A stretch of 64,000 nt of DNA from Myxococcales bacterium (GTDB lineage: Bacteria > Myxococcota_A > Polyangia > Haliangiales > Haliangiaceae): contig JADJGV010000034.1 in the NCBI GenBank assembly GCA_016707895.1, positions 821,625 to 885,624 of the forward strand. The letters are read 5' to 3'. Each line of letters begins with the position of its first letter. The first letter of the stretch is position 1. The notes under the pieces were generated by a model. The model was given only the letters and a program-made list of their open reading frames with translations, ran no database searches and was not told where the DNA came from. The position numbers and the translations under genes are program-made. Positions 48,381-63,996 of this stretch are shown piece after piece.

Positions 48381-49703
48381 GTGCCTGTGCCCAGCTCGAT
48401 GCGTCGGAGGTGGTTCGTCGTCGTCGCCGCCGTCGCGGTGGCCGCGTGCGGCGCGGGGAGCGCGCAGCCCGACGCCACCCCGGCCGACGCCGCCCCGGAC
48501 GCCCGGGCCGCCCCCGACTACGGGCGGCTGTTCCCCACCGATCGCGTGATCGACGTCGCGCTCGACACCAGCGCCGCCGACTGGGCGGCGCTGATGGCCG
48601 ACCCGCTCAACGACGCGCTGCAGATCCCGGCCACGGTCACCTACGACGGCGCGGTCGTCACCCAGGTCAGCCTCAGCACCAAGGGCAACTCGTCGCGCAA
48701 CTCGGTCCGCGCGATGGGCTCGCAGCGCTACAGCTTCAAGCTCGACCTCGACGAGCGGGTGCCGGGGCAGCGGCTGTTCGGCGTCGACAAGCTCAACCTG
48801 CACAACTCGTTCAAGGACCCGACGCTGCTGCGCGAGACGATCGGCTACGCGATGATGCAGGGCGCCGGGGTCCCGGCCAGCCGCACGGCGTTCGCGCGCC
48901 TCACGATCAACGGCCAGCCGTGGGGCCTCTACGTCGTGGTCGAGCAGGTCGAGGCCGACTTCCTGCGCGACCGGTTCGGCGCCGCCGACGGTGAGCTGCT
49001 CAAGCCCGACCAGCCGTCGGGGCCGCTGACCCTCCGCGGCGCGACCTTCGCCGACTACCCGGGCGTCGAGGTGAAGCTCGACGGCGGCGACCCGACGCAC
49101 CAGCGGTTCCTCGATCTGATCGCGGCGCTCGATCACGGCACCGAGGCCGAGGTGGCGGCGGTGCTCGACGTCGATCGCCTGCTGCCGTGGCTGGCGATCA
49201 ACACGTACCTGGCCAACCTCGACAGCTACGCCGGCAGCGCCCACAACTACTACCTGTACCTGGACCCGGCCAGCGCGCGCTGGATCCTCGTGCCCTGGGA
49301 TCTCAACGAGACCTTCGGCAACTTCCGCTGCGGCTGGACCGCGGCGAACATCGTCGCGCTCGATCACCTGCGGCCGCAGTGCAACCAGCCGGCGCCGCGG
49401 CCGCTGATCAGCAAGGTGCTGGCGTCGCCCACCTGGCGCGCGCGCTACCAGGCGCTGCTGCGCGACCTGATCGCCGGCCCCGGGGCGCCGACCGCGGTGC
49501 GGATCGACGTCGACGCCCGCGCCGCGCTGATCCGCGACGCGGTCGCGGCCGATCCGACCAAGTTCTTCACGCTGGCGCAGTTCGACACGGCGATCCACGA
49601 CGACCTGCCGGTCACCAACCAGCCCGGCCTCGACTCCGCGATCCTCGGGCTGACCGCGTTCGCCGAACGGCGCGCCGCCGCGCTCGCGACGCAGCTGCCG
49701 TAG
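48381..49703 (+). CDS. CotH-family (spore-coat-protein-H-like kinase fold) lipoprotein
   Basis: Lipobox VAVAACGA. The family-like core is FKLDLDE...KLNLHNSFKDPTLLRE...YLANLDSY...HNYYLY. Confidence 0.75.
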   Translation: MPVPSSMRRRWFVVVAAVAVAACGAGSAQPDATPADAAPDARAAPDYGRLFPTDRVIDVALDTSAADWAALMADPLNDALQIPATVTYDGAVVTQVSLSTKGNSSRNSVRAMGSQRYSFKLDLDERVPGQRLFGVDKLNLHNSFKDPTLLRETIGYAMMQGAGVPASRTAFARLTINGQPWGLYVVVEQVEADFLRDRFGAADGELLKPDQPSGPLTLRGATFADYPGVEVKLDGGDPTHQRFLDLIAALDHGTEAEVAAVLDVDRLLPWLAINTYLANLDSYAGSAHNYYLYLDPASARWILVPWDLNETFGNFRCGWTAANIVALDHLRPQCNQPAPRPLISKVLASPTWRARYQALLRDLIAGPGAPTAVRIDVDARAALIRDAVAADPTKFFTLAQFDTAIHDDLPVTNQPGLDSAILGLTAFAERRAAALATQLP

Positions 49704-49730
49704 CCCACCGCTGGCCTCGCAGGCCGCGCG

Positions 49731-50552
49731 TCAGGGCAGGAAGGCCGCGGGCCCCTGCGCGATCAGCAGGTCGAACTCGGCGCCGCGCAGCGCGCGGTCG
49801 AACACCGCGGCCTCGTCGATCAGGCCGAGCAGCGTCCCGAGATCGGAGAGGCCGCCCGTGAAGTTGGCCGCGCCGATCGAGAGCCCGGACTCGGCCTTGC
49901 CATCGTTGTGGACGTGGGTGTGCTCGTCGAACCTGTTGACGTCGTGGCTGCCCGAGTACTGGCCGGCGGTCGCGCCCGGCGCCGGGTCGACGAACACGTC
50001 CAGCGTGTCGCTGGCCGCCACGTAGGTCGCGATCACCTGGTGCCAGTTGCCGTCGTCGATCGCGACGTCGGTGTGCGGGTTGCTGACCCAGCCGCTGTCC
50101 CACTGCACCGTCTGGCTGCGCACGAACATCGCCTTCGAACCCTGGTTCCACGCGGTCCCGGCGGGGTTGCGCGAGAACAGCGCGCCCGACGACGACGACG
50201 TGCGCACGTAGACGTGCCAGGTGAAGTCGGCGTTGAAGTCGAACCCGGCCGGCGCGCCGACGTCGAAGCGGTCCCCCGCGGTGCCGAGCCGCAGGGCCTC
50301 GCCGCGGCGTCCGGACCCGCCGGTGCTGATCCGGGCGGCGCCGACCAGCGTCCCGGCGTGGGGGCCGACCAGATCGCGGCCATCGACGTCGAAGCTCCAG
50401 TAGCCGGCGGGTGGATCGAACGCCGGGCCGGCGTCGACGTCGCGCGCGGCGCCGTCGATGGCGCCGCTGTCGACCGCGCCGACCTCGGAGCCGCCGGCTG
50501 GTGTGAAGCTGCAGCCGGTGACCAGCCCGAGGAGCACGCACGAGCGCCACAT
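49731..50552 (-). CDS. LamG/concanavalin-A-like lectin-fold lipoprotein
   Basis: Lipobox LGLVTGCS. Motifs are typical of LamG jelly-roll proteins (FTWHVYVRT...GNWHQVIATY). Confidence 0.65.
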   Translation of the reverse strand: MWRSCVLLGLVTGCSFTPAGGSEVGAVDSGAIDGAARDVDAGPAFDPPAGYWSFDVDGRDLVGPHAGTLVGAARISTGGSGRRGEALRLGTAGDRFDVGAPAGFDFNADFTWHVYVRTSSSSGALFSRNPAGTAWNQGSKAMFVRSQTVQWDSGWVSNPHTDVAIDDGNWHQVIATYVAASDTLDVFVDPAPGATAGQYSGSHDVNRFDEHTHVHNDGKAESGLSIGAANFTGGLSDLGTLLGLIDEAAVFDRALRGAEFDLLIAQGPAAFLP

Positions 50553-50633
50553 GGTCGACCAGTGTAGCGCGGGCGCGGGCGCGGAGATCAATGGCGTCGC
50601 CGCTCCGGCGGTGGCGACGCGGGCGAGGGCGGT

Positions 50634-50963
50634 TCAGTCGAAGATGTCCCACCACGACCGCTTGCGACCCGGGTAGCGGCCGCGGTCGTCGTCGTCGTCG
50701 TCGTCGCGGCGGCGCCGGCGGTCGTCGTCGTCGCGCCGGCGGTCGTCGTCGTCGTCGTCGCGGTGGGCCGGGCCGGCCGCGGCGCGCGGCGGGGCGTCGC
50801 GGAGGTCGCGGGGGCCGGCCTCGGCGTCCCGGGCGCGCGCGAGCAGCTTCTCGAGCTCGCCGCGATCGAGCCAGATGCCGCGGCAGCGGTCGCAGCGGTC
50901 GATCGTGACGCCGTCGCGGTCGAGCTCGAGCAGCGGTGCGTCGTGGCAGCGGGGACAGTTCAT
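50634..50963 (-). CDS. zf-TFIIB-type zinc-ribbon protein with a highly charged D/R-rich tail
   Basis: MNCPRCHDAPL...VTIDRCDRCRGIWLDRGELEKL. The tail is poly-D/R. Confidence 0.7.
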   Translation of the reverse strand: MNCPRCHDAPLLELDRDGVTIDRCDRCRGIWLDRGELEKLLARARDAEAGPRDLRDAPPRAAAGPAHRDDDDDDRRRDDDDRRRRRDDDDDDDRGRYPGRKRSWWDIFD

Positions 50964-51199
50964 CGACTTCTCCTGGTGGGCGGGCGCGGCCGCCGGGGCG
51001 GCGCGTCGGGCGTGGGCCGTGGTGGACATGCCCTCAACCTGGGGCGCCCGCGGCCCTTCGTCGAATCGAAAGTTCGCATCGGAGAGTGTGAGAAAAACGA
51101 CACGACGTTCCATCCGCGGACGGCCGCCGCCCGGGCCCGTGATCTCGGAGACTTGCGCGTCGGCTGTCACACCTGGCCGGCGCGCGACTCCACCTGTGC

Positions 51200-52405
51200 A
51201 TGGAGACCTCGGCCCGGCAGTCACGCGATCAGGAGACCGGCGGCGCGGAGCAAGAGGCGGCGTTCGCCAACGGGAACGCCGAGCGGCCAGCGGCGCCGGC
51301 GGCGCTCGAGGCCCGCGCCATCCTGGCCGGCGGCGGCGGCGCCAAGGCGCTGGCCGCGCTGCTCCACCAGCACCCCGATCAGCGCGAGCCGATCGTCGCC
51401 GAGATCCAGCAGCACCCGGCCGGCGGCAACGCGGTCTGCGGCGAGGTGCTCGAGGAGATGGCGGTGCCCAAGGGCCCCGAGCCGCTGCTGCGCGTCGGGT
51501 CCCGCGGCGAGCCGGTGGTGCGCCTGCAGCAGGGCCTCATCAAGCACGGCGCGACGATCAGCGCCGACGGCGCGTTCGGCCCGCAGACCGCCGGCGCGGT
51601 GATGGCGTTCCAGCTCCAGAACGACCTGGTCGCCGACGGGATCGTCGGGCCCAAGACCTGGGGCGCCCTCGACGGCGCGCCGGCCGCCGAGCAGCAGGCC
51701 GAGCCCAAGGCGCCGGCGGCCGAGCCGGTGCAGGACGAGCACCCCGCGCCCACCACGCCGACGCCGACGACGACCCCGGGCACCGGCGCGGGCGGCGCCA
51801 CGACCGCGGGCGACAAGTACCGCGAGCAGTACGTCTCGCAGCTGCTCTACTTCGAGGGCGCGCAGGAGGGCGACGCGAAGTTCGAGTCGATCATGTCGCA
51901 CGAGGGCCTCGAGGCGCAGCGCAAGGCGGCCGACGGCAAGACCTTCAGCACCTGCAACTCGTTCTCGGGGATCATGCAGACGATGGCCGAGCAGAAGTCG
52001 GGCGTGAAGATGAAGGCCAAGATCAACCTGTACGTGATGGACCCCAAGTGGCGCGAGAAGAACCTGCCCGAGGGCGCGTTCCACCCGGGCGGCGGCGGCG
52101 ACCGGCCCAAGCCGGGCGACATCCTGATCTTCTCGCAGCTCGACGGGCGGACCTTCGCGCACATGGGCAACTTCATCGAGGGCCCGATCGCCACCGACGA
52201 CGGGCTCGAGGAGTGGCAGTGCATCGACGGCGGCCAGGGCCAGGCCGGCAAGTACGTCGACGGCGTCTGCGTGCAGCAGGGGCACGAGATGATCGGCCGC
52301 ACCCACATCAAGTACAACCCGGCCAACAACCAGACCGTCCCCAAGTGGGGCAACCCGCGGATGGTCTACGGCTGGGTCGACATCGCGATGCTCGCCGCCG
52401 AGTGA
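51200..52405 (+). CDS. Peptidoglycan-binding (PG_binding_1) domain protein with a C-terminal Cys/His-containing domain (candidate cell-wall hydrolase/effector); no signal peptide
   Basis: PG-binding motif LRVGSRGEPVVRLQQGLIKHGATISADGAFGPQTAGAVMAFQ. It is followed by a PT-rich linker and a domain with TCNSFSG...FAHMGNF...CIDGG. Confidence 0.65.
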   Translation: METSARQSRDQETGGAEQEAAFANGNAERPAAPAALEARAILAGGGGAKALAALLHQHPDQREPIVAEIQQHPAGGNAVCGEVLEEMAVPKGPEPLLRVGSRGEPVVRLQQGLIKHGATISADGAFGPQTAGAVMAFQLQNDLVADGIVGPKTWGALDGAPAAEQQAEPKAPAAEPVQDEHPAPTTPTPTTTPGTGAGGATTAGDKYREQYVSQLLYFEGAQEGDAKFESIMSHEGLEAQRKAADGKTFSTCNSFSGIMQTMAEQKSGVKMKAKINLYVMDPKWREKNLPEGAFHPGGGGDRPKPGDILIFSQLDGRTFAHMGNFIEGPIATDDGLEEWQCIDGGQGQAGKYVDGVCVQQGHEMIGRTHIKYNPANNQTVPKWGNPRMVYGWVDIAMLAAE

Positions 52406-52427
52406 CGGCCGCGACCGGGTTGCCGCC

Positions 52428-52697
52428 TCAGGGCTCGACGGGCTCGAGGTCGCACTGCGCCCGACAGCGCGCGTCGACCTCGTCGTACTCGCCGTCCTCG
52501 GTCATCAGGCAATCCTCGAGGCAGCGCAGCGCCTCCTGGTACACGGGGTCGGGAGGCTCCTCGGGCTTGGGCGTGGCCGAGGCGGCCGGGGCCGAGGCGG
52601 GCGGCGCCGCCGCCGCCGGCGCGGGCGTCGCGGTCGGCGCCGGCGCACCACCGCACGCGATCACCAGCACGAGCGCGAGCGTCGAGGTTCGGATCAT
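52428..52697 (-). CDS. Small lipoprotein with a Cys-rich acidic C-terminus
   Basis: Lipobox LVIACGG. Four Cys lie in the last 35 aa. Confidence 0.55.
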   Translation of the reverse strand: MIRTSTLALVLVIACGGAPAPTATPAPAAAAPPASAPAASATPKPEEPPDPVYQEALRCLEDCLMTEDGEYDEVDARCRAQCDLEPVEP

Positions 52698-52761
52698 CGC
52701 CCCATCGTAGGGGATCTCGGACCGGCGTGGCGGAGATCGCGGTGACGGCGGCGGCCCACCA

Positions 52762-53142
52762 TCAGCCCCGGCTGGCGATCCAGATCAGGTAGTCGCGCAG
52801 TCGCGCCCAGTACAGGCGGCGCACCCGGGGCAGGCGGCGCAAGAGCGGTGGCTGGCAGCGCGGGTTGAGCCACATCGCGGTGGCGCGCCCGGGCACCTCG
52901 GCGAACCGCGCGCGGGCGTCGGCGACCAGGCGATCGATCAGCAGGTCGACGTCGATCACGTCGGCGGCGCGGCGCAGCAGCGCGCCCTCGAGCCGATGGT
53001 CGGCGAGCCCGATGGCGGCGCAGTACGAGCGCACGCCGTCGTCCGAGATCGCCGCCGGGCGCGCGGCGTCGCGCAGCCGTCGCCCGAGCGTCCACAGCGT
53101 CCGATCGACGTCGGCAGGGAGAGACGCAGATTGAGCCAGCAT
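52762..53142 (-). CDS. Hypothetical protein
   Basis: The start is at MLAQSAS. It is divergent from arr. Confidence 0.45.
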   Translation of the reverse strand: MLAQSASLPADVDRTLWTLGRRLRDAARPAAISDDGVRSYCAAIGLADHRLEGALLRRAADVIDVDLLIDRLVADARARFAEVPGRATAMWLNPRCQPPLLRRLPRVRRLYWARLRDYLIWIASRG

Positions 53143-53254
53143 GCCTGAGGTCGTTTCAACCGGCGTGCCAGTCTGCAAGTCGCCGTCGCGACACGCGCGC
53201 GCCGCGCGCCGCCGTTGCCAAACGCAACCGTCGACGTCGACCGCGGACCGTAGG

Positions 53255-53716
53255 ATGCTCGACGCGATGAGCACCACCGCCCCGGCGCCGGTCCCGTTCG
53301 AGGTGTGGACCGACACCGACGGCGCGCCGCGCTACCTCCACGGGACCAAGGCCGCGCTCGCGCCTGGCGAGCTGATCGAGCCCGGTCGCGCCTCGAACTT
53401 CGGCAAGCGATCGGCCGCCGCGTTCGTCTACCTGACCGCGACGCTCGACGCCGCGACCTGGGGCGCCGAGCTGGCGATCGGCGACGGCCCCGGCCGCATC
53501 TACATCGTCGAGCCGACCGGGCCGATCGAGGACGATCCCAACCTCACCGACCAGAAGTTCCCCGGCAACCCCACGCGCTCGTACCGGTCGCGGGCGCCGC
53601 TGCGGGTCGTCGCCGAGCTCCGCGACTGGCGCGGCCACGCCCCCGCACAGCTCGAGGCCATGCGGGCGGGGCTGGCGCGCCTGGCGGCGCAGGGGATCGA
53701 GGCGATCGAGGACTGA
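53255..53716 (+). CDS. arr: NAD(+)--rifampin ADP-ribosyltransferase (Arr)
   Basis: Arr-family signature YLHGTKA.L.PGELIEPG..SNF...........VYLTATLDAATWGAELA.GDG.GRIYIVEPTGPIEDDPNLTDQKFPGNPTRSYRS..PLRVV over ~140 aa. The alternative start is 53267. Confidence 0.85.
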   Translation: MLDAMSTTAPAPVPFEVWTDTDGAPRYLHGTKAALAPGELIEPGRASNFGKRSAAAFVYLTATLDAATWGAELAIGDGPGRIYIVEPTGPIEDDPNLTDQKFPGNPTRSYRSRAPLRVVAELRDWRGHAPAQLEAMRAGLARLAAQGIEAIED

Positions 53717-53875
53717 CGCGCGGGCCGACCGCCGCCCGCCGGGCGACCACGTCGGGCGGCCACCTGGGTAGCCGGGGTGGTGGCGAGTGGCCTGTTCGCC
53801 GACATCGCGGCGCGGGCTAACCCCGCGACGTCACACCTCCGGGGTGATGGCACCGCACGTGCAAAGGGCCGGCCC

Positions 53876-55846
53876 ATGATGAGAATCACTGGGTGGCTCG
53901 CCCTGAGCCTTGGGATGACGTTGGTCGCGGCTTGTGACACGGCGGATGACGATCCGCTGGATGGGATCGACGACACCTTCGTGAGCGACGGCAAGACCGA
54001 CGTCGCTGGCGTCGAGGACAAGTCGCCGGCGGCGTGCGCGCTGCTCCGGGTCGCGCGCGAGGCCAGCTTCGACGAGCTCGACGACGACGTCCGCTTGAAC
54101 GCCAAGGCGGCGCGGGCGATCGTCGCGGCGCGCGAGGACGACTTCCTGCCGACCCTGGCCGCGCTCGACGCGGTTCGGTACATCGGCCCGGCGGCGGTCC
54201 GCCGGCTCGACACGTACGCCAAGGCCCACTCGGCCTACGCGTGTGGCAGCCAGCAGGTCCAGGTCCTCGCCACCAACGACTTCCACGGCAACCTCAAGCC
54301 GCCGTCCGGCTCGAGCGGCCGCATCACGACCGCGGTCGGGACGCCGCCGACCACCGTCGACGCGGGCGGCGCCGAGTACCTGGCCACGCACCTGGCCGCG
54401 CTGCGCGCCACCAACCCGCAGACCGTGACGGTCGCGGCCGGCGACGTCATCGGCGCGACGCCGCTGATCTCGGCGCTGTTCCATGACGAGCCCACGATCG
54501 AGTCGATGAACGCGGCCGGCCTCGACGTGGCTGGCGTCGGCAACCACGAGTTCGACGAGGGGCCCGACGAGCTGCTGCGCATGGCCTACGGGGGCTGCCA
54601 CCCGACCGACGGTTGCCAGGACGGCGACGCCTTCGCCGGCGCGTCGTTTGGCTACCTCGCGGCCAACGTGGTCGTCGATGACAGCGGCGAGACGCTGTTC
54701 CCGCCGTACGAGATCCGCGCCTTCCGCGCCGCGCGGGTCGCCTTCATCGGCCTCACCCTCGAGGGCACGCCGAACATCGTCACCCCTGCCGGCGTGGCCG
54801 GCCTCAGCTTCACGGACGAGATCCAGACCGTCAACGCGCTGGTGCCCGAGCTCAAGCGGCAGGGCGTCGAGACCATCGTCGTGCTCTTGCACGAGGGTGG
54901 CTTCGCGACCGGGCTCTACAACGAGTGCGCCGGCATCTCCGGGCCGGTGTTCGACATCGCCCGCGGGTTCGATCCCGAGGTCGACGTGGTCGTGGCCGGC
55001 CACACCAACGCCGCCCACCTGTGCGACATCGACGGCAAGCTCGTGACCAGCGCGGCGTCGTTCGGCCGACTCATCACCGACATCGACCTGACCATCGACG
55101 AGGTGACCGGCGAGGTGAGCGCCAAGACCGCGCAGAACGTCATCGTCACCCGCACGGTGGCCAAGGACGCCGCCCAGACCGCCCTCATCACCAAGTACGA
55201 CACGCTGGTGGCGCCGCTCGCCAACCGGGTGGTCGGCACGATCACCGGCGACCTCACGCGCCTCGCCAACGCCGCCGGCGAGTCGCTGATGGGCGACGTC
55301 ATCGCCGACGCCCAGCTCGCGGCGACCCGCGCGCCGGCCCAGGGCGCCTCGGTCCTGGCGCTGATGAACCCCGGCGGCGTGCGCGCCGACCTCACGGTCG
55401 CGCAGATCACCGGCGGCGAGCAGCCCGGGCAGATCACCTACGGTGAGGCCTTCACGGTGCAGCCGTTCGGCAACGCGGTCGTCAGCATGTCGATCACCGG
55501 CGCCGAGCTCGACGCGGTCCTCGAGCAGCAGTGGACGCTGGTCGGCGGCGTGCGTCGCGTGGCGATGCTCGCGCCGTCGGCGGGCCTGACCTACACCTGG
55601 ACCGCGGCCAGCGCGGACGGCGACAAGGTCAGCGACATCCGGCTCGCCGGCGTCCCGATCGACCCCGCGGCCCGCTACCGGATCACCGTCAACAGCTTCC
55701 TCGCCGACGGTGGCGACGGGTTCACCGTCCTCAAGCAGGGCATCGACCGGATCGGCGGCGAGGTCGATCTCGACGCCCTCACCGCCTACCTCACCGCCAC
55801 CTCGCCGCTGGCCCCGCCTACGCTCGGCCGCATCACGATGCGCTGA
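53876..55846 (+). CDS. Lipoprotein 5'-nucleotidase/metallophosphoesterase (UshA-like) with an N-terminal ComEA-like HhH domain
   Basis: Lipobox MTLVAACD. The HhH is AREASFDELDDDVRLNAKAARAIVAAR. Metallophosphatase motifs are NDFHG, GNHEFD and GH.H. The C-terminal domain is the 5'-NT type. Confidence 0.85.
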   Translation: MMRITGWLALSLGMTLVAACDTADDDPLDGIDDTFVSDGKTDVAGVEDKSPAACALLRVAREASFDELDDDVRLNAKAARAIVAAREDDFLPTLAALDAVRYIGPAAVRRLDTYAKAHSAYACGSQQVQVLATNDFHGNLKPPSGSSGRITTAVGTPPTTVDAGGAEYLATHLAALRATNPQTVTVAAGDVIGATPLISALFHDEPTIESMNAAGLDVAGVGNHEFDEGPDELLRMAYGGCHPTDGCQDGDAFAGASFGYLAANVVVDDSGETLFPPYEIRAFRAARVAFIGLTLEGTPNIVTPAGVAGLSFTDEIQTVNALVPELKRQGVETIVVLLHEGGFATGLYNECAGISGPVFDIARGFDPEVDVVVAGHTNAAHLCDIDGKLVTSAASFGRLITDIDLTIDEVTGEVSAKTAQNVIVTRTVAKDAAQTALITKYDTLVAPLANRVVGTITGDLTRLANAAGESLMGDVIADAQLAATRAPAQGASVLALMNPGGVRADLTVAQITGGEQPGQITYGEAFTVQPFGNAVVSMSITGAELDAVLEQQWTLVGGVRRVAMLAPSAGLTYTWTAASADGDKVSDIRLAGVPIDPAARYRITVNSFLADGGDGFTVLKQGIDRIGGEVDLDALTAYLTATSPLAPPTLGRITMR

Positions 55847-55855
55847 GTCGCGCGA

Positions 55856-56251
55856 TCAGCGGCCGCGGCCGTCGAACGACCAGCGCCCAGCGCCGCGGGC
55901 GGCGATGAACAGCAGCACGAAGCAGTACAGCGCCGCGAGCTCGCCGTGGTTGACCGCCGGCAGCCACTTCCAGTCGGCGAACTGGCCCTTGTGGTGGAAC
56001 TGGAAGTAGGCCACCGCCATCGTGCCCGAGCCGAGCAGCGCGGCGAGGCGGGTGCCCAGGCCGATCGCGATCAGCGCGCCCGCGACCAGCTCGATCACGC
56101 CGCCGATCCACAGCTGGCTGCCGAACGCCGGCGTGGGCCTGGTGGTCAGCCAGCCGAACACCTTCTGCAGGCCGTGGCAGGTGAACATCGCGCCGGCGAC
56201 GATCCGCAGCGCGGCGTAGGCCGGGTCCTCGAGCTTGGCGAGCATGCGCAT
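55856..56251 (-). CDS. DoxX-family membrane protein
   Basis: Four TM helices. The N-terminus LRIVAGAMFTCHGLQK is typical of DoxX. Confidence 0.75.
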   Translation of the reverse strand: MRMLAKLEDPAYAALRIVAGAMFTCHGLQKVFGWLTTRPTPAFGSQLWIGGVIELVAGALIAIGLGTRLAALLGSGTMAVAYFQFHHKGQFADWKWLPAVNHGELAALYCFVLLFIAARGAGRWSFDGRGR

Positions 56252-56270
56252 CGCGGCAGTGGAGCACGTC

Positions 56271-56524
56271 TCGGCGCGCGCGCATCCGGCGCCGCGCGCT
56301 GTGTAGACTGCGCGTCACGGCCGAGCCCATCGATCGCGTGACGCTGTTCGTGCCTGGCGTCCCACCGGACGCGTCGCTCCAGCTCGGCGATCAGATCGCG
56401 CACGAGTGGGTCGCCAACGACGGCCGCTGCGCCGACGCGTTCCGGTGCGCAGCCGCGGCTACGTCGATCTCGAGCCCGAGCTGGCGTGGGAACAGTGGCA
56501 GCTGGTGCGCGACCGGCCCGGGTG
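56271..56524 (+). pseudogene. Internally deleted, diverged remnant of the hypothetical gene at 58621..59529 (5' ~185 bp including upstream leader joined to last ~70 bp; ATG mutated to ACG)
   Basis: Direct nucleotide similarity: 56271-56455 matches 58572-58757 and 56456-56524 matches 59455-59529. The start codon is lost. Confidence 0.7.
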
Positions 56525-56670: not shown

Positions 56671-58437
56671 TCAGCGCGCGAGCATGCCGTCGATCGCGAT
56701 GCCCACGCCGGCCAGGCTCTCGCCGGCGATCAGCCCGGCCGCGGCCACCACCAGGAACCGCGTGCTCCAGCGCGGGGTCACCCGCTCGCAGGTCGCCGCG
56801 ACCACCGCGCCGAAGCACATCGAGATCGCGTTGTACGCGGGCAGCACGAAGGCGAGGCCCAGCGCCGACGGGCTCGGCACCCACCGGCGGGCGCGCGCCG
56901 GCAGCGTCCGCTCGGCGATCGCCAGCGCGCTCCCGGCGGCGCCCGCGATCAGGATCGCCCAGCCCGCGCCGCCAGGCATCGCGTGGAAGCCCTGCTTGAA
57001 GACCTCGGCCACCGCCTTCCACGTCGCGACGGCCGGCGCCGGCCACTCCTCGGTGAGCAGCATGGTCTGCGGATCGGGGATCAAGATCAGGTAGGCGGCG
57101 CTGCCGATGCACGCGCCGGCCAGCGCGCCCATCACCTGAGCCAGCGCCTGGTAACGCGGCATCGCCCCCAGCAGGTAGCCGGTCTTCAGGTCGTGGAGCA
57201 GATCGGCGCACTGGCTGGCGGCGCCGCCGGTGACGTTGGCGGCCATCAGGTTGGGCGCGACCTGGCCGGGCGCGAGCGCCCCGAACAGGAGCTGGGTCAC
57301 TTTGCCCATCGCGCCGATCGGCGTGACGTTGGTCTCGCCGGCCACGCGGCCCGCGACGATCGCGAGCACGAACGACACCAGCACGCCCAGCACCGCGATC
57401 GGCCAGAAGATGTCGAACAGCGCGACCTGCAGCAGCACCGAGAGCACCAGCGCGACCGCGGCGCCGCGCAGCCACCAGGTCCGGCTGACCTCGCCCGTGT
57501 CCTCCGTCGACCCGCCGCCCTGGGTCCGCCGGAACGCCCCCGCGATCGAGCGCCACGAGAACGCGAACGAGGTCAGCGCCGAGGTCACCATCATCGCGAC
57601 GCCGGGCCACAAGAGCCACTTGTTGAGCGGGATGAACCAGGCCGCGTCTGGCGCGCCCGCGACCGCCCAGCCCTCACCCAGCGCGATCGGCGCGAGCACG
57701 ACGTACGCGACGATCGCGCCGAGCAGCAGCGACAGCCCGGCGCGCAGGCCGATCAGCCCGCCGATGCCCACCATCAGCAGGTTCGGCTCGACCGCGAGCG
57801 TCAGGTTGCCCGCCGAGACGCTGCCGGCCGCGCCGGCGTAGCGGCCCGGCAACGCGACCTTCCCCACCAGCTTCAGGTGCTCGGCGACCTTCACCGCGGC
57901 GGCCAGCGCGCCGGCGCCGACCAGCATCCACACCCGCGCCACCGCCTCCTTGCCCGACGCGTACATCTCCTTCAGCGTCTCGGCCGAGGCGATGCCGCTG
58001 GGGAACGGCAGCCGATCGACCAGCAACATCTGGCGCCGCAGCCCGATCGCGACGACGATCCCGACGCAGCACACCGAGAACGTCCACAGCGCCAGCAGCG
58101 GCCACGACAGCGACGTGCCGTCGAGCAAGGTCAGCGCGGGGATCGGCGCGACCAGGCCGGCCGACGAGATCGCCGCGCCGGCCGACGCCGCGGTCTGGTT
58201 GAGGTTGTTCTCCAGCATCGTGAACGGGGCCATCGGCCGCACCGCGCTCATCGCCCGCCAGAACGCGAACCCGAGCAGGGCCGCGGTGACCGACATGTTG
58301 TTGCTCCAGCCGATCTTCAGGCCGCTGTACAGGTTGCACAGCGACAGCAGCCCGCCGAGGACCATGCCGGTCGCGACCGCGCGCACGGTGAGTTGCCGCA
58401 TCGTCCGGTCGAGCGGCGCGGGCTGGAGGGATGCCAT
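56671..58437 (-). CDS. OPT-family oligopeptide transporter
   Basis: Length is 589 aa with about 15-16 TM helices. OPT-typical blocks (NLYSGLKIGWSNNMSV, GETNVTPIGAMGKVTQL). Confidence 0.8.
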   Translation of the reverse strand: MASLQPAPLDRTMRQLTVRAVATGMVLGGLLSLCNLYSGLKIGWSNNMSVTAALLGFAFWRAMSAVRPMAPFTMLENNLNQTAASAGAAISSAGLVAPIPALTLLDGTSLSWPLLALWTFSVCCVGIVVAIGLRRQMLLVDRLPFPSGIASAETLKEMYASGKEAVARVWMLVGAGALAAAVKVAEHLKLVGKVALPGRYAGAAGSVSAGNLTLAVEPNLLMVGIGGLIGLRAGLSLLLGAIVAYVVLAPIALGEGWAVAGAPDAAWFIPLNKWLLWPGVAMMVTSALTSFAFSWRSIAGAFRRTQGGGSTEDTGEVSRTWWLRGAAVALVLSVLLQVALFDIFWPIAVLGVLVSFVLAIVAGRVAGETNVTPIGAMGKVTQLLFGALAPGQVAPNLMAANVTGGAASQCADLLHDLKTGYLLGAMPRYQALAQVMGALAGACIGSAAYLILIPDPQTMLLTEEWPAPAVATWKAVAEVFKQGFHAMPGGAGWAILIAGAAGSALAIAERTLPARARRWVPSPSALGLAFVLPAYNAISMCFGAVVAATCERVTPRWSTRFLVVAAAGLIAGESLAGVGIAIDGMLAR

Positions 58438-58620
58438 GCTGTCAGGTATCACGTCGCGCGCCGTGGTCGCAGTGGCCAGGCGCGCTCCCCTGGTCTCGTT
58501 GTTGATCGCGACCGCGTGTGCCTCGACGGCGCCCCGGGCGGTAAGCCGGCGGCGTCGGTCGCGGCACGTCGCGGCGCGCGCGCACGCTTCCGCTGCCGCG
58601 CGCTGTGTAGACTGCGCGCC

Positions 58621-59529
58621 ATGGCCGAGCCCATCGACCGCGTGACCCTGTTCGTGCCTGGCGTCCCACCGGACGCGTCGCTCCAGCTCGGCGATCAGGT
58701 CGCGCACGAGTGGGTCGCCAACGATGGCCGCTTCGCCGACGCGTTCCGGTTCGGGACGGTCGAGCCCGACGTGCTGGCGCGGCTCGCCGTGACGCCCGGC
58801 GCGGTCGTCGTCTCCGCCCGCGTCGACCTGCGCGAGGGCCGGGAGGCGTTGATCGCCGCGGTCGAGCGCTTGCGCGACGCCGGCGCGATCGCGGTGCGGC
58901 TCGAGGAGTCGATGCTCGGCTGGGACGTCGCGCGCTGGCTCGAGCTGGTGTCGTCTCCGTCGCCGTGGGACTGGCACCGCGCCGCGGTCGTCGTGCTGTC
59001 TGGCGACGGCGCGCTGCAGTCGTGCGGCATGCACGCGTTCTCGCTGCCCGACGTGCGCATCGAGCTCGATGGCGATCGGGCCGCGCTGCAGGAGCTCGCC
59101 GAGACGCTCAACGTGTACCAGCTGGCCGAGGACCCGGTGCTCCGGTCAGGGCAGACGTTCCGCCCCGACGACGAGGCGCCGCGGCGCGTCGTCGAGCGGT
59201 GGCCCGACGTCGTGTACCCGCCGGGCCACGCTTGCCACAACCCGTACGGCGTCTGGCGGCTCGGCCCACCTGGTGGCGCCGGGCGGGGCGTCGGCGAGCT
59301 GGTGCCGGTCTTCGTCCCGGCGCTCGCCGCCGTCCTCGGCGCGCTCGAGGCGCAGCACGGCCAGCCGCTGACCGAGGCGCAGGTGCTCGAGGCCCGCGAC
59401 CGCGGCGCGTGCATCATGATGGAGCCGCGCGACGCGCAGCGGCTGGAGCGATCGCGTGGCTACGTCGACCTCGAGCCCGAGCTCGCGTGGGAGCAGTGGC
59501 AGCTGCTGCGCGGCGCCGGCGAAGGCTAG
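58621..59529 (+). CDS. Hypothetical protein (302 aa), intact copy of the duplicated gene
   Basis: Clean frame MAEPIDRVTLFVPGVPPDASLQLGDQVAHEW... Its 5' and 3' ends are duplicated at 56271..56524. Confidence 0.6.
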   Translation: MAEPIDRVTLFVPGVPPDASLQLGDQVAHEWVANDGRFADAFRFGTVEPDVLARLAVTPGAVVVSARVDLREGREALIAAVERLRDAGAIAVRLEESMLGWDVARWLELVSSPSPWDWHRAAVVVLSGDGALQSCGMHAFSLPDVRIELDGDRAALQELAETLNVYQLAEDPVLRSGQTFRPDDEAPRRVVERWPDVVYPPGHACHNPYGVWRLGPPGGAGRGVGELVPVFVPALAAVLGALEAQHGQPLTEAQVLEARDRGACIMMEPRDAQRLERSRGYVDLEPELAWEQWQLLRGAGEG

Positions 59530-59769: not shown

Positions 59770-59905
59770 GCGCGCCGCGATCGAACACGCCGCGCGGCGG
59801 ATCAGTTCGGCATGCAACGCGACGCCGAAGCCGGTGGCGCGGTCCTTGGGGACCGCCGGGCCGGCCAGGTCGACGTGGCGCCAGCGGCGGCCGGCGGTCG
59901 CGCCG
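59770..59905 (-). repeat. Diverged (~90% identical) copy of the last ~38 codons plus ~25 bp downstream flank of pepA (62516..62655); the stop codon is mutated
   Basis: Nucleotide alignment to the pepA 3' end. The translation is DEFGATAGRRWRHVDLAGPAVPKDRATGFGVALHAELIRRAA. A third short copy lies at 60527..60560. Confidence 0.75.
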
Positions 59906-62497: not shown

Positions 62498-62541
62498 GCG
62501 GCGCCGGCGCGCTCGCGCGACCGGCGGCGCGCCGCGACCGA

Positions 62542-63996
<1,455 letters not shown>

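Follow-up and report, generated by a model that had tools for sequence, protein, structure and literature searches.

A canonical chromosomal Arr gene, predicted to provide intrinsic rifamycin resistance, at a mosaic locus of an uncultured myxobacterium

The window, i.e., the whole 64,000-nt stretch of DNA that we analyzed, comes from an uncultured myxobacterium whose DNA is ~75% GC. Near 53 kb it carries a predicted rifampin ADP-ribosyltransferase gene (arr), flanked by a divergent gene for a small orphan protein and by a gene for a lipoprotein-type 5'-nucleotidase. The features of this locus are as follows:

52762..53142, minus strand: divergent gene for an all-helical orphan protein of 126 aa, GC3 0.91, with no family match
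53143..53266, no strand: divergent intergenic region of 124 bp between the 126-aa gene and arr, with a -10-like hexamer and no Shine-Dalgarno sequence
53255..53266, plus strand: upstream in-frame ATG, taken as the start in an earlier reading, probably not the start codon
53267..53716, plus strand: arr coding sequence, single-domain NAD(+)--rifampin ADP-ribosyltransferase, 149 aa plus stop (PF12120, NF033144, 2hw2)
53717..55845, plus strand: variable cassette (arr-nucleotidase spacer and 5'-nucleotidase gene), delimited by blastn breakpoints
53876..55846, plus strand: lipoprotein-type bifunctional metallophosphatase/5'-nucleotidase, 656 aa (PF02872, PF00149)
55856..56251, minus strand: DoxX-family membrane protein (PF07681, E=9.9e-12), the conserved right flank of the cassette, homologous in L089 and L001

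A previous reading of this DNA, made from the sequence only, had described an Arr homologue with the full family signature, and the 153-aa product read from 53255-53716 contains all of the motifs it quoted: HGTKA (residue 29), PGELIEPG (37), VYLTATLDAATWGAELA (58), IYIVEPTGPIEDDPNLTD (82), and FPGNPTRSYRS (102). The product matched Pfam PF12120 (Arr-ms) over model positions 1-99 of 99 (E=5.4e-48; 161.7 bits, cutoff 25) and the NCBIfam equivalog NF033144 over model positions 4-131 of 131 (200.7 bits, cutoff 130). Sequence matches in the PDB were to Arr-ms (2hw2/9iaf; E=2e-48) and Arr-2 (9iba; E=4e-35). For this predicted product, the family match is far beyond chance, and its length of 149 aa fits that of the small, single-domain Arr proteins (about 140-150 aa). 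The 149-aa protein (P0126) is, residue for residue, NCBI MBK7198310.1 (100% over 149, an equivalence taken from the cluster listing), which is titled [quoted passage not shown]. Since the two are the same protein, the gene is already annotated publicly as Arr; close variants are labelled Kofleriaceae. The ORF at 53267-53716 is a canonical chromosomal Arr gene that is already known, with nothing unusual about it. Another family, that of the RiPP ADP-ribosyltransferase MicD, was weighed and rejected: PMC12912966 sets MicD against Arr, and there are no RiPP genes nearby.

The length of the product had previously been given as 150 aa; the ORF opened by the ATG at 53255 encodes 153 aa, and the likelier product is the 149-aa protein that begins at 53267. 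In L006, a sister genome, the loss of 1 nt shifts the upstream ATG into a frame that stops after three codons (ATG CTC GGC TGA), whereas the second ATG, equivalent to 53267, remains in frame. MBK7198310.1 and several related public records are also 149 aa in length. Since the deletion in L006 breaks the upstream ATG and the public record is 149 aa long, the true start of arr is probably the ATG at 53267 rather than that at 53255.

The sequence-only reading had proposed a comparison with characterized Arr enzymes; a global alignment of the window Arr with Arr-ms (2hw2) gave 59.2% identity over 142 aligned residues. Mutagenesis has shown that NAD+ binding and catalysis depend critically on residues H19, Y49, and D84 of Arr-ms (PMC6092378, PMC8492726); these correspond to H25, Y55, and D90 in the 149-aa numbering. 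The protein also retains the HGT (25-27), SNF (43-45), and DPNL (90-93) motifs, together with the whole PGNPTRSY loop. In a 2026 structural study (bioRxiv 10.64898/2026.05.04.722716), N86, K91, L130, and L133 were identified as rifamycin contacts and F39 as a gating residue; the Arr-ms contacts N86, K91, S99, L130, and L133 are all kept in the window Arr (including K97, S105, L136, and L139), as is the gating phenylalanine (F45). No catalytic residue was lost on alignment, and the sequence, with all of its catalytic and ligand-contact residues, backs the earlier prediction of rifamycin inactivation. An AF2 model of the protein, built from a shallow alignment, was of low confidence (pLDDT 58), and in a fold search this model gave significant PDB matches only to 9iaf, 2hw2, and 9iba (E=2e-12 to 1e-8; TM ~0.5). 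Since the model reaches a pLDDT of only 58, the structural comparison is in keeping with the Arr fold but adds little to what the sequence provides.

A single substitution separates the 124-bp intergenic region upstream of arr from that of the same-species contigs L001 and L002, and the region is largely kept in L006. A -10-like hexamer, TAGGAT, occupies 53251-53256, 10 nt ahead of the ATG at 53267, and no Shine-Dalgarno sequence was found ahead of this ATG. TAnnnT hexamers 8-10 nt 5' of the arr ATG also occur, with no Shine-Dalgarno sequence, in L007 and L008, making three Myxococcota loci together with the window. Speculatively, the arr mRNA may be leaderless and transcribed from the -10-like TAGGAT. 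A strict scan of 52.6-54.0 kb for sigma-70 promoters and intrinsic terminators found no sites, and the short inverted repeats in this interval are GC-rich, low-information palindromes. Among Myxococcota arr loci, no upstream 9-mer was shared above GC-rich noise.

The rifamycin-associated element (RAE) has been described as restricted to Actinobacteria. Its 19-bp palindromic consensus, which we take to be GGGGCTTGCGGCAAGCCCC, is matched exactly 5' of arr in a Thermoleophilia locus (L036), and this match served as validation. A search of the whole window with this consensus, allowing up to 4 mismatches, found the element absent. The predicted resistance gene of the window is outside the actinobacterial, RAE-controlled rifamycin resistome.

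The earlier reading had also placed a divergent gene of no assigned function beside arr, and it is indeed found at 53142..52762 on the minus strand. With a GC3 of 0.91, the 126-aa ORF looks like a real gene. Searches of Pfam and NCBIfam with the protein gave no match, nor did its longer relatives. It is rare: only six clusters turned up in 5.8 billion proteins, and 1.84 billion representatives included 21 relatives. The predicted structure, a five-helix bundle with a pLDDT of 79.9, had no match in a fold search of the PDB. The gene adjoins arr only in the closest lineages, and its distant homologues (L086-L088) are not beside arr; on this ground a role as a conserved Arr partner was rejected. 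Since the distant homologues sit apart from arr, there is no sign of a functional link between the two genes. Neither the 126-aa gene nor the 5'-nucleotidase appears to be functionally related to arr. One could conceive of the divergent pair of the orphan and arr, together with the highly conserved region between them and an arr mRNA that may lack a leader, as a lineage-specific regulatory module; the orphan would then be a new regulator that responds to rifamycin or stress and stands in for the RAE. We consider this idea very unlikely.

Of all the results, the comparison with related contigs told us the most. In L001 and L002, the order is as in the window: 126-aa gene (minus), arr (plus), and nucleotidase (plus). 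The sister lineages L006 and L089-L094 have the genes for the Zn-ribbon protein, the PG-binding protein, the 126-aa protein, and Arr in an arrangement collinear with that of the window. In blastn, the homology that L006 and L089 share with the window breaks off at 53716, where the arr stop codon ends. For L089 it picks up again at 55846, where the stop codon of the nucleotidase gene ends and shortly ahead of DoxX, and the intervening space is filled by three unrelated genes (262 aa, DFP-like, and 234 aa). In L006, different DNA with a 262-aa ORF follows arr, and the contig ends short of the DoxX flank. As judged from these alignments, the nucleotidase is a swappable cassette and arr is on the conserved side. 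Since the codon usage of the nucleotidase is native and its closest full-length homologues are from Myxococcota, the exchange points to a rearrangement within the lineage rather than to import of foreign DNA.

The 53876-55846 product contains both the 5_nucleotid_C (PF02872; E=1.3e-36) and Metallophos (PF00149; E=1.4e-5) domains above their cutoffs, which places it among the 5'-nucleotidase/UshA-like metallophosphatases, and its N-terminus carries a signal peptide with the lipobox LVAAC. Of the previous description of an HhH-containing 5'-nucleotidase, the lipoprotein and nucleotidase domains stood, whereas the HhH itself is weak: a ComEA-like match at about 54059-54211 (HHH_3, E=0.0032) fell short of the gathering score (27) at 18 bits. 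The homologues P0168, P0199, P0206, and P0215 carry precomputed, above-threshold PF12836 matches. Among full-length homologues, the closest carry the labels Kofleriaceae, Polyangiaceae, Sandaracinaceae, Myxococcaceae, and Myxococcota. The lower GC content reported for the first ~100 codons of the gene was borne out: these codons, which encode the signal peptide of the lipoprotein and a linker rich in Asp, have a GC of 0.69 (~5th percentile of 300-nt windows) and a codon usage z of -2.0. This dip is real but mild, and it is not significant evidence for import.

Other differences among relatives, and other features of the window, were also observed. The 89-aa ORF at 52428-52697 is swapped in L089 for a 428-aa eCIS_core/DUF922 gene, the LamG-like gene at 49731-50591 is missing from L089, and in L001 the nucleotidase and DoxX genes are separated by an additional 475 bp containing a 122-aa ORF. 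By alignment with L089, L006, and L001, the interval 49702-56300 is mosaic among close relatives. The Zn-ribbon (TFIIB-type) protein encoded at 50634-51224 (minus) has an unusual C-terminal tail of Asp/Arg runs, DDDDDDRRRDDDDRRRRRDDDDDDDRGR, and the DNA beneath it is a 27-nt periodic repeat family (50683-50790). Further downstream, the region at 56-63 kb had been called repeat-rich; repeats do exist there, but they amount to a few two-copy direct repeats. Part of this region is a DUF4261-like pair that looks like a duplication tied to rearrangement. A frame-broken, internally deleted remnant at 56274-56511 matches the DUF4261-like gene at 58578-59529 in two stretches, of 176 nt (93% identity) and 58 nt (91%), and lacks ~700 bp; the two copies flank a gene for an OPT oligopeptide transporter (56671-58344, minus). 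A further two-copy repeat pairs 59770-59905 with 62527-62662.

The sequence-only reading had suggested that this block was perhaps acquired horizontally. We weighed the view that arr and the nucleotidase form a recently acquired island. The presence or absence of the nucleotidase cassette in sister lineages, with sharp breakpoints, would fit such a history, as would the composition of the first 100 nucleotidase codons, the mosaic nature of the locus, an IS110 transposase ~9 kb away in L089, and the known mobility of Arr in other phyla (PMC8492726). However, arr lies on the conserved side of each breakpoint, and in both L006 and L089 it forms a collinear block with the genes upstream of it. The codon-usage profiling that had been proposed as a check spoke against acquisition, with both arr (z=+0.24; GC3 0.96) and the whole nucleotidase gene (z=+0.19) native in synonymous codon usage relative to 39 reference genes elsewhere in the window. 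In a scan with one genome per species, Arr was matched in more than 560 species genomes from many phyla. The nine closest relatives of the window Arr (74-91% identity) were all from Myxococcota-labelled MAGs or unclassified "Proteobacteria", and only these relatives made up its clade in a neighbor-joining tree of 83 Arr sequences, a tree drawn from the 80 most similar loci and without bootstrap or other support values. The nearest homologues of the nucleotidase are likewise from Myxococcota. Scans of the whole window for tRNAs and with Rfam gave no matches, the genes scanned at 45.1-64.0 kb contained no integrase or transposase domains, and no flanking direct repeats were evident on reading the cassette junctions. 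By composition, by tRNA, integrase, or transposase genes, by repeats, and by phylogenetic incongruence, the locus does not resemble a genomic island; only the presence of the cassette varies. Because its codon usage is native, its clade is entirely from Myxococcota, its synteny is conserved, the window has no tRNA, and the genes scanned at 45.1-64.0 kb include no integrase or transposase, horizontal acquisition of arr is not supported by these sequence comparisons, and we regard a recently acquired island as extremely improbable. What stands of the earlier suggestion is that the nucleotidase cassette is variable, likely through change within the lineage.

The reading that we hold to be very probable is that the gene encodes a canonical Arr, predicted to give intrinsic rifamycin resistance, which has long resided in the myxobacterial lineage outside of any mobile island. 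By homology with Arr of M. smegmatis, the enzyme would bind rifamycin first and NAD+ second and would transfer ADP-ribose to the C23 hydroxyl of the rifamycin ansa bridge. The ADP-ribosylated rifamycin would be unable to block RNA polymerase, and the expected outcome would be an intrinsic, drug-specific resistance of the cell. Family membership, retention of every catalytic and contact residue, native composition, and conserved synteny are seen directly in the sequences, whereas the activity of the enzyme, its expression, and the resistance phenotype are inferred from them. It is also conceivable that the protein is a genuine Arr-family ADP-ribosyltransferase whose main role is other than rifamycin defense, rifamycin modification being a side activity; the role might then concern an endogenous target, a stress or DNA-damage response, or another ansa-type inhibitor of RNA polymerase. 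M. smegmatis Arr is reported to have both catalytic and non-catalytic roles in the DNA damage response (PMC3138739), and the apparent vertical maintenance of arr within a Myxococcota clade, without the rifamycin-responsive RAE of Actinobacteria, would accord with such a role. However, every rifamycin-contact residue is conserved, none of the neighboring genes points to another pathway, and rifamycins are, according to a recent preprint, the sole known small-molecule substrates of Arr (bioRxiv 10.1101/2025.02.20.639278). Considering both sides, a main role outside of rifamycin defense seems unlikely. Akin to the idea of a regulatory module, and likewise very unlikely, is that Arr of the Myxococcota clade acts on a substrate other than a rifamycin.

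With canonical resistance as the preferred reading, the window arr adds to the intrinsic rifamycin resistome a further myxobacterial entry of environmental origin, probably wastewater or soil. Since the gene is chromosomal and shows no signs of mobility, it has little relevance to how resistance spreads. What proves useful is a negative finding: the idea of horizontal transfer fails for arr, and its neighbors do not appear to be functionally linked to it.

Arr has been found in about 5% of RefSeq genomes, in 11 phyla (PMC8492726). Many of the top-scoring Arr homologues in our own searches were ~230-265 aa in length and contained two complete, tandem Arr-ms domains (e.g., P0001, P0007, and P0009); these tandem proteins came from cyanobacteria (Nodosilinea, Desertifilum), Longimicrobiales, and many metagenomes, and tandem or fused forms are unmentioned in the text of the 2021 Arr survey (PMC8492726). 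Among the characterized systems, Arr-2 (9IBA), integron- or plasmid-borne in Gram-negative pathogens, belongs to one family with the window Arr and has the same catalytic motifs, the two being ~42% identical when the model is aligned to 9iba with Foldseek. In contrast to the mobile gene cassette of Arr-2, the window arr is chromosomal, of native composition, and free of any mobile-element context. Arr-ms of M. smegmatis (2HW2/9IAF) and the window Arr are alike in being single-domain, chromosomally encoded proteins of ~145 aa with 59% identity, and they share the H-Y-D triad, HGT, SNF, DPN[VL], the PGNPTRSY loop, and the C-terminal helix with L130/L133. Unlike Arr-ms, the window Arr belongs to a host from Myxococcota rather than Actinomycetota, has no RAE upstream of its gene, and carries six extra N-terminal residues.
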